From a virus (Duplodnaviria; Caudoviricetes), in the IMG/VR virus record IMGVR_UViG_3300033148_002141, positions 1-59,762 of that record: a stretch of 59,762 nt of DNA; one strand, 5' to 3'. The translations under genes and the position numbers were made by a program. Below are positions 1,602 to 7,864 of the stretch, in pieces (within the stretch, counting starts at the first letter, position 1; every line of letters begins with the position of its first letter). The notes below the pieces were generated by a model, which saw nothing but the letters and a program-made list of their open reading frames with translations, made no database searches and was not told where the DNA came from.

Positions 1602-1665
1602 GCACGTTCACCCGGATTCCCTGGACGTTCTATACCTCTCTCAAAGAAGGAGAAACGACACGATG
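1602..1665 (+). repeat. orphan copy of the 3' end + RBS of the Trp-Gly repeat genes
   Basis: 1602-1632 is identical to 974-1004 (GCACGTTCACCCGGATTCCCTGGACGTTCTA); the remainder resembles 2712-2744 (CTC..AAGAAGGAGAAAC..ATGA). Confidence 0.9.
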
Positions 1666-2742
1666 ACTGAACATGCAACCGATATGACTGCGTGGCCGCA
1701 ATGGCTGCGCGATGCGGAAACCCGTAACGCCCGCGTTACTATCTCGGGAAAAGACCGGGTGATATGGCTTGGCGGGACGTGGATTAACGGCGAATGGCAC
1801 GGCGGCGAATGGCGTGGCGGCCATTGGCGTGACGGTATTTGGCGCGGCGGCCACTGGAATGGGGGCCTTTGGTATCACGGGACCTGGCGCGGTGGCACTT
1901 GGCGTACTGGCACATGGTACAATGGCACATGGAATAACGGCTTTTGGTATGACGGTCATTGGTACGACGGACAATGGCACGGCGGCCATTGGTGTGGCGG
2001 TATTTGGCACGGCGGCGAATGGCATCGAGGCGATTGGGTCAACGGCACTTGGCATACTGGCCATTGGCACGATGGTGTGTGGTACGATGGCAATTGGTGC
2101 CGGGGTAGTTGGTGCAATGGCAGTTGGCACAATGGTAAATGGCATAACGGCGTCTGGTTCAACGGCATTTGGGACGATGGCCAGTGGCATAACGGCGTCT
2201 GGTTCAACGGCAGTTGGCGTGATGGTTGGTGGTATAACGGCACTTGGCACTACGGCAATTGGAATGCTGGCACATGGCGTTCTGGGTGCTGGTGTGGCGG
2301 CGCGTGGTATGGCGGCGAATGGTGTGGCGGCGAATGGCGCCGTGGTGAATGGCTTGATGCGAGGATTGACCGCCTGTTATTCATGGCGTCGCGTATCGGA
2401 ATCGTATTCGACGCCGACGGTTACGCAACGGCCTATCGCTCCACAGGCCCCGACGGCGAAGGCCGGTGGACCGGCGACTTTCACCAGGCCGAAGGTGAAT
2501 GCTACGACGATGACCTGTCTCCATCTGGTAGTGGAGTGACTACGCGAGGCATCTGCGTCTGTTCCCAGGCCACGGCATTAACGCATTGCGATATCGACGC
2601 GACTGCCCAACTATGGCAGGTACGATTCCACCGCGATGATCTGCTCGACTGTGACGGACAGCAGGCCCGTATCCGGGGTGGCACATTCACCCGGATTCCC
2701 TGGCCGTTCTATCGACCTCTCGAAGAAGGAGAAACAACCTGA
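1663..2742 (+). CDS. Trp-Gly pentapeptide-repeat protein, paralog of 1-1035
   Basis: Same N-cap, WxxGx repeats and highly similar C-terminal domain; AAGGAG SD. Confidence 0.88.
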   Translation: MTEHATDMTAWPQWLRDAETRNARVTISGKDRVIWLGGTWINGEWHGGEWRGGHWRDGIWRGGHWNGGLWYHGTWRGGTWRTGTWYNGTWNNGFWYDGHWYDGQWHGGHWCGGIWHGGEWHRGDWVNGTWHTGHWHDGVWYDGNWCRGSWCNGSWHNGKWHNGVWFNGIWDDGQWHNGVWFNGSWRDGWWYNGTWHYGNWNAGTWRSGCWCGGAWYGGEWCGGEWRRGEWLDARIDRLLFMASRIGIVFDADGYATAYRSTGPDGEGRWTGDFHQAEGECYDDDLSPSGSGVTTRGICVCSQATALTHCDIDATAQLWQVRFHRDDLLDCDGQQARIRGGTFTRIPWPFYRPLEEGETT

Positions 2743-3068
2743 TGACTCTCAACGAACTGACTGCCCCCAAAGGCACTACTGGCTTGGGTGTGGATTCGCC
2801 GAAGGACGGCGACTTCTACGCCGTGGCCGCGGATTGGAAGGAACCGGATTCCCCGGTCTTCATCTACTGTAGAAGCGAAGGGCAGTGGACACCCGCTCCG
2901 TCCGACGTCCTCGTCAAGGATGTGGATGGCGACCCGGAATATGCGTTGGCTGATTATCTCTGGGCGATGTGGGAATATCGCCCCATCGTAAGCGGTGAAA
3001 TCGCGGAAGCACTTGACCGCGCTGTGCCGATCTGCGAGGAGGGCAGCGAGTCAAATACCCCCGGCTAA
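2742..3068 (+). CDS. hypothetical protein; last residues (SNTPG) supplied by the IS end
   Basis: Coupled to upstream gene (TGATG); reconstructed IS-free allele ends ...EEGSE*. Confidence 0.7.
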   Translation: MTLNELTAPKGTTGLGVDSPKDGDFYAVAADWKEPDSPVFIYCRSEGQWTPAPSDVLVKDVDGDPEYALADYLWAMWEYRPIVSGEIAEALDRAVPICEEGSESNTPG

Positions 3069-3200
3069 ACCCGAGGGCTTGTAAGTAGCCTCAAGCGCAG
3101 TCCAGGAGTAACCCTGTTTTGCCTTCAACGGCTCCTACCATAGGCCCTTTGACGAGGCCCTTTGAACGGATGTTTACCGCAGCCACGAAATCAGCATTGG
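3030..3200 (-). ncRNA. putative TnpB reRNA/omegaRNA (right end + flanking guide TCGCTGCCCTCCTCGC...)
   Basis: Established TnpB architecture: the reRNA derives from the tnpB 3' end/right end and the guide from the flank; 5' boundary is only approximate. Confidence 0.6.
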
Positions 3201-4286
3201 CCGAGTAGCCGCAATGCTTACACGCAAACTCAGATTGACTCTTGCGATTGCCCTTCTCGCAATGCCCGCATTTTGGGCAGGTGCGACTGGTATTGCGCGG
3301 GTCAACCAGCATGACGAGCACACCGGCGAGCTTGGCCTTGTACTCAATAAAAGACCTCAGTTGGAAGAAAGCCCAACTACTGAACTTGGCCCGCTGGCTG
3401 CGTCGAACCGTTGTGCCCTTCCGGATTCCCTTGAGATTTTCAAGGACGATTGCGGAACGGGATGCCTTTGCTTTGCCAACGAGCCTTTTGCTGATTACGT
3501 GGTTCGTGTTCCTCTTGAAATTGGATTCCTTGCGTCTGATTTTGACGAGCCGACGTTTCGCCGACTTGGTGCCCACCGATTGCAGTACCGCCCGCCGGGT
3601 GGCGTACTTTACACGGTTGGCCTCGACCGCATCCCCGGAAAATGTCTCCCCGGTCGAGTCGGTGGCGATATTGACGATGCCCAGATCAACACCCAGTACG
3701 TCGGTAGGCTCCAAGGGTGCCCCGTCGGGCATTTCGATCGTACACAGCAGATAGAACTTGCGGTTGCGGTAGATCAGGTCTGCCTGACCCTTGATTCGAC
3801 CCTGGCGGTGCTTCTGGTACGCCCCGCACACGAACGGTATTCGGAGCCGGCCGGTCAATGCCCACAAGCTGACTTCCGTCAGACCCTTGAAGCTCAAAAC
3901 CCGCTGATCGTAGCAGATTGCCCCGCGCGGCTTGAACTTGGGACACTTACTTTTGTTCCGTTGGAAACACTCGACCGCCTTGGCAATGGCCCGAATGGCC
4001 ATCTGAGACGACAGGCCGAACTTTTCGCGGATGTCGTAGTAGGCCCGGCGGTGCAGGGAAACTTGCCCGAAGACCTTATCTCGGAACCCTACTTCCGCGG
4101 CATAGGTGGCGGCCTGGTTGAACCGCTCCATCGTGTCGAGCAGGTCTTTCTTCTGCTGGCGAGTTGGCAGAAGTTGCAGTTGGAGTGTGAGCTTCATATT
4201 GGAAGTATACCCAAAACCAATCCTGTAGTCAAAGAAAGGACGCATTCTTCCGCCCACTAAAGTGGACGGTATCTTGCGTAACACAC
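3050..4286 (-). mobile_element. IS200/IS605-family TnpB-only (IS1341-like) element
   Basis: Minus strand: left-end hairpin CCGTCCAC-TTTA-GTGGGCGG preceded by GATA, with target TCAT (4290-4287); right-end hairpin CCCTCGG-GTTTAG-CCGGGGG preceded by CAAG, ending TGAC at 3050; no tnpA. Confidence 0.88.
3091..4197 (-). CDS. tnpB: RNA-guided endonuclease TnpB
   Basis: Start MKLTLQLQL; RuvC motifs GVDLG, VLENL, NADFVAAVNI; Zn ribbon CPKC...CKHC; 368 aa. Confidence 0.95.
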   Translation of the reverse strand: MKLTLQLQLLPTRQQKKDLLDTMERFNQAATYAAEVGFRDKVFGQVSLHRRAYYDIREKFGLSSQMAIRAIAKAVECFQRNKSKCPKFKPRGAICYDQRVLSFKGLTEVSLWALTGRLRIPFVCGAYQKHRQGRIKGQADLIYRNRKFYLLCTIEMPDGAPLEPTDVLGVDLGIVNIATDSTGETFSGDAVEANRVKYATRRAVLQSVGTKSAKRRLVKIRRKESNFKRNTNHVISKRLVGKAKASRSAIVLENLKGIRKGTTVRRSQRAKFSSWAFFQLRSFIEYKAKLAGVLVMLVDPRNTSRTCPKCGHCEKGNRKSQSEFACKHCGYSANADFVAAVNIRSKGLVKGPMVGAVEGKTGLLLDCA

Positions 4287-4502
4287 ATGACACGAAAACC
4301 ACAAACCTTCGGCCAACGTGTTCGCGCTCTGCGCGGGGCTCGAACGCAAGATGAGTGCTGCCGGGCCGCCGGAATCACTCGGCAAAGCACTTGGTCCGAG
4401 ATCGAAACCGACAACGCGAATCCGACCCTTTCGACGCTACGCAAAATCGCCAAGGGCCTGGGATTCACGCTATCCGAACTGTTTGACGAGGCTGAATCCT
4501 GA
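4287..4502 (+). CDS. XRE/Cro-CI family HTH transcriptional regulator
   Basis: FGQRVRALR...TQDECCRAAGITRQSTWSEIE...NPTLSTLRKIAKGLG pattern. Confidence 0.9.
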   Translation: MTRKPQTFGQRVRALRGARTQDECCRAAGITRQSTWSEIETDNANPTLSTLRKIAKGLGFTLSELFDEAES

Positions 4503-4520
4503 TCGGCAGAGAATCAGTCT

Positions 4521-4793
4521 TCAGAGCGTGCATGTCAGTTCCCCTGAGTTTTGGCCGACCGGCCCCATTCCCTGCGCCTGTCGCCGCTTATTTACCCAAT
4601 GCAAAATTGATTCGGCCGACCTGGGATCGTAATAGCCCTGCCTCGCATACTCGATCACCGTAGTCCGGGCCAACCCAGTCCACCGCGAAATGAGGGAATA
4701 AGTAAGATGGCAAAGTTTTTTCTCTGCCCCTTTGGGCTTTCGTGGCATTTTTTTTGGCATTTTCGCCCAATTCATCAAATCTGCTGTTGACAC
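4521..4793 (-). CDS. small basic putative DNA-binding protein (start uncertain)
   Basis: LTYSLISRWTGLARTTVIEYARQG is HTH-like; convergent with the XRE gene. Confidence 0.45.
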   Translation of the reverse strand: MSTADLMNWAKMPKKMPRKPKGAEKKLCHLTYSLISRWTGLARTTVIEYARQGYYDPRSAESILHWVNKRRQAQGMGPVGQNSGELTCTL

Positions 4794-4816
4794 AACGCGT
4801 GAGTGTCGTATATTCT
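4787..4816 (+). promoter_or_regulatory. sigma70-like promoter overlapped by an imperfect palindrome (candidate operator)
   Basis: TTGACA 4787-4792, TATATT 4809-4814 or TATTCT 4811-4816; GACAC-AACGCGTGA-GTGTC dyad. Confidence 0.65.
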
Positions 4817-4925
4817 ACAGGAACCACAACCGAAGGCAACCACCGTCTGAGCACCACCTGGCCTTGCCCGGATTCTTATGGTTGCCTTTCCCGCCGGGCA
4901 AGGCCGCTTTTTGAAAGGCCACCCC

Positions 4926-5153
4926 ATGAAACCCGTTTGGAAGAACGATCATCTCACTGTCGTGTTGCACAAGCCCGAATTGTCGATCTTGGCGAAAGCC
5001 CGCAAAATTGGGCAAGCATTGCACGCAATGGCTCAGGAAACAGGGCAGCCCTTGATGGACGCCATCGACGCCATTGCTCCCCATCCCGACATTATTGCCC
5101 GCCGTCCCGGCATTTGGGAGCAATTCTCGGACACACAGGCGGAAGAGGAATAG
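4926..5153 (+). CDS. hypothetical protein
   Basis: ATG 4926 after GAAAGG; first gene downstream of the promoter. Confidence 0.6.
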   Translation: MKPVWKNDHLTVVLHKPELSILAKARKIGQALHAMAQETGQPLMDAIDAIAPHPDIIARRPGIWEQFSDTQAEEE

Positions 5154-7651: not shown

Positions 7652-7864
7652 ATGTTGGTTCTGGCACGGAAGCAAGGCGAAGTGATCCGAATCGGTGACG
7701 ACATTCGCGTAATGGTCGTATCCACTGGGCGCCAACAGGTGAAACTCGGAATCACCGCTCCCGAACACGTCGTGATTCTGCGTGAGGAAATCGCCGGCGA
7801 ATCCAGCCCCGCAGGGGAGCGCAGGAAGCGCAACGCATTGGACGCAGAAGGGGACGGGCACTGA
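7652..7864 (+). CDS. csrA: carbon storage regulator CsrA/RsmA
   Basis: MLVLARKQGEVIRIGDDIRVMVV...VKLGITAPEHVVILREEI is the canonical CsrA signature including the RNA-binding Arg in ILREE. Confidence 0.93.
   Translation: MLVLARKQGEVIRIGDDIRVMVVSTGRQQVKLGITAPEHVVILREEIAGESSPAGERRKRNALDAEGDGH

Follow-up and report, generated by a model that had tools for sequence, protein, structure and literature searches.

A transposase-less TnpB element at the start codon of a phage regulator gene, and a clade of relatives with a preference for start codons

How does a mobile element without a transposase come to lie between the ribosome-binding site (RBS) and the start codon of a phage regulator gene, and what becomes of that gene? 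The question is raised by the viral record IMGVR_UViG_3300033148_002141 (Caudoviricetes), in which a TnpB-only element of the IS200/IS605 type separates the Shine–Dalgarno (SD) sequence of a gene for an XRE-type helix-turn-helix (HTH) regulator from its ATG (Table 1). The window analysed here is the whole 59,762-bp record, which is classed as linear and has a CheckV completeness of 89%; the element occurs in it once. The element sits at the ATGA that forms the XRE start. We consider it probable that it was brought there by TnpA acting in trans and is retained through its guide, and, with modest confidence, that it lowers production of the regulator without abolishing it. An earlier reading of the same locus, the original prediction, had proposed instead that the insertion silences the regulator reversibly.

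The 368-aa TnpB (4197 to 3091, minus strand) matched Cas12f1-like_TNB (PF07282, 81.5 bits; cut-off 26.3) and OrfB_IS605 (PF01385, 37.9 bits; cut-off 30.5). In an alignment of 27 sequences, the RuvC residues D171, E253 and D336 and the zinc-finger cysteines C307, C310, C326 and C329 were invariant; Pfam and alignment thus agree with the original prediction of a TnpB-only element with all three RuvC acidic residues. Relatives were plentiful, with 6,799 of 8,000 scored candidates reaching E ≤0.001 and a best non-self match of 82% identity. We fetched up to 135 of their loci (53 from species genomes, 2 from viral contigs and 80 from metagenomes); those closest to the window among the species genomes came from assemblies of Isosphaeraceae and other Planctomycetota, at 66–71% identity.

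Features that mark the IS200/IS605 family were found at the DNA level as well. Both ends carry subterminal imperfect palindromes, without terminal inverted repeats; the flanks, TCAT and TCGC, contain no target duplication; and insertion is 3′ of a fixed short motif, TCAT or TCAC, at a constant distance from the hairpin, the sequence 5′ of this motif being unrelated from locus to locus. What the element lacks is the Y1 (HUH) transposase TnpA. Nothing in the 59,762-bp record matched the Y1 transposase profile (PF01797), which gave control matches in 6 of 14 genomes, and in the relatives the left hairpin lies 62–152 nt from tnpB, leaving no room for tnpA. Judged by its sequence, the element at 3050–4286 is a complete, non-autonomous member of the IS200/IS605 family with tnpB and without tnpA, which we take to be what is called the IS1341 type.

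Alignments with the relatives fixed the ends. On the right, conservation runs through ...ACAAGCC, the hairpin and GGTAyTTGAC and ends at 3050; on the left, it starts right after TCAT (4290–4287), 17–18 nt before the left hairpin. Run X1, labelled marine metagenome, contained five 151-nt contigs that are 95–99% identical to the element only, and one of them follows 4234–4290 and then continues into unrelated sequence. This shows a second, recent copy of the element in another context, which shares TCAT and nothing past it. The ends first proposed, 3050 and 4286, are confirmed by the alignments, and the left one independently by the diverging contig. The X1 copy aligns to window 3195–4290, and 3′ of the common ATGA its flank is free of stops over the 30 letters read.

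In IS608 of Helicobacter pylori, recognition of each cleavage tetranucleotide falls to the four bases immediately 5′ of the hairpin foot, with site base 1 pairing to guide base 2, site base 2 to guide base 1, site base 3 (A) unpaired and, by implication, site base 4 pairing to guide base 4 (PMC3201880). The original prediction had applied this rule to the window, where the left guide GATA predicts TCAT and the right guide CAAG predicts TGAC. Both sites are present, and guide and site covary through the family. A finder that used only hairpin and distance placed the left end in 55 of 108 non-redundant loci (in 50 there was no hairpin under the strict setting, and in three there was a hairpin without TCAY), giving TCAT in 29 and TCAC in 26. 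The final guide base was A in 28 of the TCAT sites and G in one; it was G in 20 of the TCAC sites, C in four and A in two. The pairing was therefore obeyed in 48 of 55 left ends, with seven exceptions. At the right, 64 ends were placed among 107 loci examined, and 61 of them were either CAAG/TGAC (50) or AAAG/TTAC (11), without a single crossed combination; the others were CAAG/TGGC (2) and CAAG/TGAT (1). With the rule imposed, left ends were placed in 87 of 111 non-redundant loci (TCAT 46, TCAC 39, TCAA 2); right ends covered 111 loci, and both ends were placed in 69. The outer stem around the left hairpin is replaced in relatives by other complementary pairs at the same place, e.g. GCGGCA/TGCCGC.

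The element thus resembles IS608 in its subterminal hairpins at both ends, in the guide pairing, and in having the left cleavage site outside and the right one inside the element; the spacing is also close (left 17–18 nt here versus 19, right 8 nt here versus 10). It differs in the absence of tnpA, in its sites (TCAT/TGAC versus TTAC/TCAA) and in the outer stem around the left hairpin (PMC3201880). Four relatives had unusual ends. Read by eye, locus L045 has a left TCAA whose guide is GAAT, a pair also found at the IS608 right end; L083 and L015 apparently have TTAC with guides GATG and GAAG, breaking the rule at base 2. L072 has a second right-end unit, hairpin plus TGAC, ~80 nt past its right end, possibly a right end in tandem or the remnant of one.

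Joining 3049 to 4287 rebuilds the site without the element. In this computed joint, the upstream open reading frame (ORF) beginning at 2742, ORF2742, encodes 103 aa ending in ...EEGSE and has a TGA that overlaps the XRE ATG; GGAGG stands at −12 to −8 from that ATG, i.e. seven bases before the start. At present, ORF2742 runs 19 bases into the element and stops at 3066–3068, gaining five residues. An ATGA overlap is in character for this genome, since the window has 31 ATGA junctions that are flanked on each side by 60 or more open codons; the junction just upstream of ORF2742 (2740–2744) is TGATG, not ATGA. The rebuilt joint and the 31 junctions bear out the earlier claim that removal of the element restores an SD and an ATGA overlap like others in the genome.

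For ISDra2, the source describes a TnpB-bound RNA composed of the 3′ end of tnpB, the right end and ~16 nt of flank as guide; the transposon-associated motif (TAM) coincides with the motif targeted by TnpA, and the natural target is proposed to be the donor joint (PMC8612924). By the same rule, the guide in the window would be TCGCTGCCCTCCTCGC, the reverse complement of 3034–3049, which supports the guide given in the original prediction; on the plus strand, these bases hold the displaced SD, GAGGAGG at 3036–3042. The TAM had been given as TCAT or possibly GTCAT. The family ends uphold TCAT; the longer form is not supported, as T rather than G is preferred at −5 in the TCAT-type elements (T 24/46, C 11/46, G 6/46, A 5/46), with a background in which T precedes TCAT in 48 of 229 sites. 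Counting both strands, the window has 358 TCAT sites, and the best of the others, taken with the adjoining 16 nt, has six mismatches to the guide. In the ~190 nt inside the right end, an alignment of 21 sequences predicted 30 consensus pairs, 15 of them with compensatory changes, consistent with a scaffold for an omega RNA (right-end element RNA, reRNA); Rfam gave no match at E up to 1 over 2500–5000. The promoter-like site before tnpB ends so close to the ATG that the tnpB mRNA is probably leaderless, and this layout recurs in relatives.

A preprint on a plasmid gene drive describes an insertion sequence (IS) on a multicopy plasmid whose guide targets IS-free copies (PMC11870625). By analogy with ISDra2 and this drive, it is reasonable to infer that TnpB from the window would cut the genomes of IS-free sibling phages, and a reading in terms of retention or drive is standard for TnpB (PMC8612924) and has an experimental analogue on multicopy plasmids (PMC11870625). 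The locus is like ISDra2 in its TnpB with a RuvC triad, in a predicted RNA made of the tnpB 3′ end, right end and ~16-nt flank guide, and presumably in having the target motif as TAM and the donor joint as natural target; it is like the plasmid drive in a guide proposed to act against IS-free copies of the replicon. It is unlike ISDra2 in its TAM (TCAT versus TTGAT), its lack of tnpA and its phage location, unlike the plasmid drive in that the replicon is a phage, and unlike both in being known from sequence alone (PMC8612924, PMC11870625).

Is placement at a start codon peculiar to the window? Empty sites were rebuilt for the 69 loci with both ends placed, and 30 TCAT-type elements had enough flank. 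We scored whether an ORF of 60 aa or longer had the complement of the TAM as its first in-frame start codon, with TCAT sites in the same loci as background. This was so in 12 of the 30 elements (window included) as against 99 of 1,398 background sites (7%; Fisher 7e-7), a ~6-fold excess. When an SD-like motif in the present guide region was also asked for, the count was 10/30 versus 36/1,398 (8e-9). With the window left out, 11/29 (4e-6) and 9/29 (8e-8) remained. A further measure, location of the element inside a long frame open on both sides, applied to 8 of 30. TCAC-type relatives had no such habit (1/28). Ten of the start-codon ORFs were scanned with Pfam: four had no match, and six matched different families (AcrB, with the profile starting from residue 4; CHASE3; methyltransferase; SpoIIE/PP2C; CoA ligase; and, weakly, glycosyltransferase). 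As these families are unrelated, the ORFs are host genes and not parts of the element. The window copy is no exception in this: elements of the clade habitually land between an RBS and its start codon.

Three side observations concern this placement. The complete 85,328-bp viral record L055 (= L075), which has direct terminal repeats, carries an element whose TnpB is 74% identical to that of the window; that element, too, is inserted backwards, at the point where a 304-aa ORF has its first start codon, with a stop directly upstream in the rebuilt site, and no TnpA was found in the record. We also considered whether the left end supplies an outward replacement SD. This was not adopted for the window copy: the motif is absent from the window and from 21 relatives at ≥60% identity, and outward SD-like motifs were seen in 18/46 TCAT-type versus 7/39 TCAC-type elements (p 0.055). 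In a subclade (L074, L078, L072, L013, L009, L095 and others) the TAM-side arm of the outer stem is CCTCC-like, so that an SD-like GGAGG faces outwards 5–10 nt before the flanking start codon. Nor did element length follow a multiple of three, by which an upstream frame would reach its original TGA: lengths of 1,223–1,353 bp obeyed no rule, and the window element has 1,237 bp.

The clade has a second peculiarity, on the opposite strand. In TCAT-clade elements of 1,223–1,353 bp, the longest reverse open stretch measured 194–414 codons, and 32 of 33 tnpB genes had a reverse frame open along 85% or more of their length, compared with 15 of 75 flanking genes. Codons TTA, CTA and TCA, which are exactly those with stop complements, occurred 34 times in clade tnpB against 150 expected from host synonymous usage (Poisson 3e-30), host genes here being greedy longest non-overlapping ORFs. 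The tnpB/host ratios of TCA (0.14), TTA (0.28) and CTA (0.29) were the three lowest of 30 A/T-ending synonymous codons; ATA followed at 0.55, and the others ranged from 0.65 to 1.6. The purge was weaker in TCAC-type relatives. In the window, tnpB has two reverse-stop codons, at codons 345 and 363 in the scaffold part. The reverse frame is open from 3166, only 116 nt inside the right end, to 4257, and stops 26 nt before the XRE ATG rather than at the ATGA, the TAA at 4258–4260 lying in the loop of the left hairpin. Among 36 elements, the reverse frame ended at the TGA of ATGA in 10, beyond the start codon in four, 2–32 nt short in nine (2 and 9 nt in two, 29–32 nt in seven, the window included) and 72–267 nt short in 13. 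In the literature searched, we found no published account of either the start-codon habit or the reverse-stop purge; supplementary TAM lists may include TCAT.

The course of events that we propose is as follows. A Y1 transposase acting in trans, presumably from the host, would have inserted the element as single-stranded DNA 3′ of TCAT, the complement of the ATGA overlap between ORF2742 and the 71-aa XRE gene of an uncultured phage. TnpB would be made, probably from a leaderless mRNA, and an RNA that covers the tnpB 3′ end and the right end and extends into the flank would yield the 16-nt guide. TnpB with this guide would cut, at the TAM TCAT, phage genomes with an uninterrupted junction, be it the donor joint left by excision or an IS-free co-infecting genome, and by this cutting the element would be kept and spread. 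The XRE start would have lost its SD and its coupling to ORF2742, such that translation would be lowered, not abolished; any ribosome translating the 364-codon reverse frame would be brought as close as 26 nt to the XRE ATG. After termination, ribosomes can reinitiate at a start codon that lies a few tens of bases off, and RNA that is not translated is prone to Rho-dependent polarity. With modest confidence, we conclude that the regulator is attenuated rather than switched off. The design of the clade suggests selection for tolerance of insertions at start codons. A stronger version, which we put forward tentatively and hold to fall somewhat short of an even chance, is that this TnpB-only clade is built for operons: ribosomes would cross the stop-free reverse strand and restart at the displaced start, XRE would still be made, the element would be nearly free of cost, and its nuclease would drive it through the phage population.

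Several observations weigh against the proposal. No unbroken route for ribosomes leads visibly from ORF2742 to XRE: ORF2742 stops at 3066–3068, the reverse frame is open only from 3166, and its first ATG, at 3214, has no evident SD. Each of four related host genomes had 6 to 40 Y1_Tnp matches; none of the six tnpA loci inspected from these genomes had ends of the element's family. The empty junction, a check named in the original prediction, was not recovered: the collections searched held no IS-free allele or sibling phage, because this phage has no relatives in any of them. ORF2742 and XRE had no relatives in viral contigs (single-protein scans, TnpB also used as query), a 20-base left-flank pattern had no exact match there, and in run X1 (share 0.09) only parts of the element were covered and no joint was seen. 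X1 was the one public run found, and no RNA run matched. On the structural side, single-sequence folds of the two ends were no better than shuffles (z −1.78 and −0.33), so support for the ends comes from comparison with relatives; the unbiased finder placed only 55 of 108 left ends, the 87 left placements behind the start-codon count impose the pairing rule, and the codon control depends on host genes delimited as above.

The most serious rival is the earlier view, plain silencing, in which loss of SD and coupling turns XRE off until TnpA excises the element precisely, making the insertion a reversible switch. Its attraction is that the SD is now 1,237 bp away and the 20 nt of element before the ATG hold no SD-like motif, that transcription of tnpB opposes the operon, and that the reverse frame has no start codon before 3214. 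Against it stand the lack of a TnpA in the contig and of a matching one in the six host loci inspected, a reverse frame that stops 26 nt short of the XRE ATG, and the start-codon habit and reverse-stop purge, which argue for selection for tolerance. Given the missing TnpA and these signs of tolerance in the clade, reversible silencing is the weakest step of the original prediction; both the silencing and its reversibility would have to be inferred, and we regard a switch of this kind as rather unlikely.

The purge of reverse stops in 32 of 33 clade tnpB genes, together with the ATG at 3214, might also mean that the reverse frame is a genuine antisense protein-coding gene and not a path for ribosomes. 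We find this improbable, for the open stretches start and end at widely varying points: they open 0 to 553 nt from the right end, and they close at the TGA of ATGA in only 10 of 36 elements, past the start in four and 2 to 267 nt short of it in the rest. Moreover, ATG 3214 lies opposite the conserved His328 codon, whose complement it is.

Base composition and chance would be another account of the open reverse frame and the start-codon position in a window of 58% G+C with many long antisense ORFs, the more so as 15 of 75 flanking host genes are likewise at least 85% open in reverse. Composition would not confine strong depletion to the three reverse-stop codons, with ATA next at 0.55, and chance does not give start-codon placement ~6-fold above that of background TCAT sites from the same loci, so that this account is very improbable. 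That an assembler joined a host element into a phage contig is scarcely credible, even for a metagenome-derived contig with a near-identical element known in another context, since both junctions are exact, removal restores the ATGA overlap and a properly spaced SD, and two contigs, perhaps one assembly filed twice, have the 108-aa form of ORF2742 whose tail comes from the element.

The neighbouring genes give the setting of the insertion. The 71-aa ORF matched HTH_31 (35.8 bits; cut-off 27) and HTH_3 (26.2 bits; cut-off 23) in Pfam and eight phage regulator or repressor PHROGs, and through its HTH_3/HTH_31 domain belongs to the XRE/Cro-C1 type of HTH regulators. ORF2742 had no homologue except itself among the proteins searched. 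3′ of the XRE gene there follow, in order, a promoter-like site, an Erf-like annealing protein, an exonuclease, a CsrA-like regulator and an HNH/NinG-like protein, which places the gene at the edge of an early or recombination module. The promoter-like site, TTGACA-16-TATATT at 4787–4816 (+), is near consensus (11/12) and lies just 3′ of the XRE gene; a 90-aa ORF without a family match adjoins it at 4521–4793 (−), and the region 4521–4816 may be a control region on which the XRE protein acts. The phage-encoded CsrA-like regulator of the early module, at 7652–7864 (+), matched phrog_9500 (E 6e-18). On the other side, 1–1035 and 1663–2742 (+) encode paralogous proteins that consist mostly of short Trp/Gly-rich repeats (GxW-type) and have a common C-terminal domain; they had no Pfam or PHROG match and are in the same operon as ORF2742. 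A TnpB inside a phage is by itself not news, as homologues were found in 499 of 50,697 phage records, 37 of these spanning at least 80% of the query.

Table 1. Features of the element and the genes on either side, in window coordinates
Feature	Position	Strand	Remarks
TnpB-only IS200/IS605-type element, whole	3050..4286	−	1,237 bp; no target duplication; ends from family alignments
tnpB	3091..4197	−	368 codons plus stop
XRE-type HTH regulator gene	4287..4502	+	71 aa; at present 1,237 bp from its own SD
ORF2742, present form (108 aa)	2742..3068	+	last 19 bases are element DNA; predicted original stop TGA 4288–4290
Target/TAM TCAT	4287..4290	−	outside the element; plus strand ATGA, the XRE start codon and A
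Left guide tetranucleotide GATA	4270..4273	−	5′ foot of left hairpin
Left subterminal hairpin	4250..4269	−	8-bp stem, loop TTTA; stem sequence varies in relatives, pairing kept
Outer stem ACGCA/TGCGT	4240..4278	−	encloses left hairpin and an internal loop
Right guide tetranucleotide CAAG	3078..3081	−	covariation with right cleavage site
Right subterminal hairpin	3058..3077	−	stem covaries strongly
Right cleavage tetranucleotide TGAC	3050..3053	−	final four bases of the element
Flank predicted to be copied into 16-nt guide, TCGCTGCCCTCCTCGC	3034..3049	−	read directly; guide rule from ISDra2 (PMC8612924)
Predicted omega RNA/reRNA scaffold	3050..3240	−	overlaps tnpB 3′ end and right end
Promoter-like TTGACT-17-TATACT	4204..4232	−	10/12 matches; ends 6 nt before tnpB ATG
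Stop-free reverse frame, 364 codons	3166..4260	+	crosses tnpB and most of left end; first ATG 3214; stop 4258–4260

For annotation, the insertion means that ORF2742 has an artificial tail of five residues and that gene callers would see no RBS before XRE. For work on TnpB, the locus offers a fully specified natural system, with TAM TCAT (T preferred at −5), a 16-nt guide, a predicted scaffold and a probable leaderless promoter, in a phage setting where the guide predicts the cutting of IS-free genomes and so can be tested. If ribosomes can cross thanks to the purge of reverse stops, this would account for the persistence of TnpB elements without a transposase in compact phage genomes and in genomes dense with operons.

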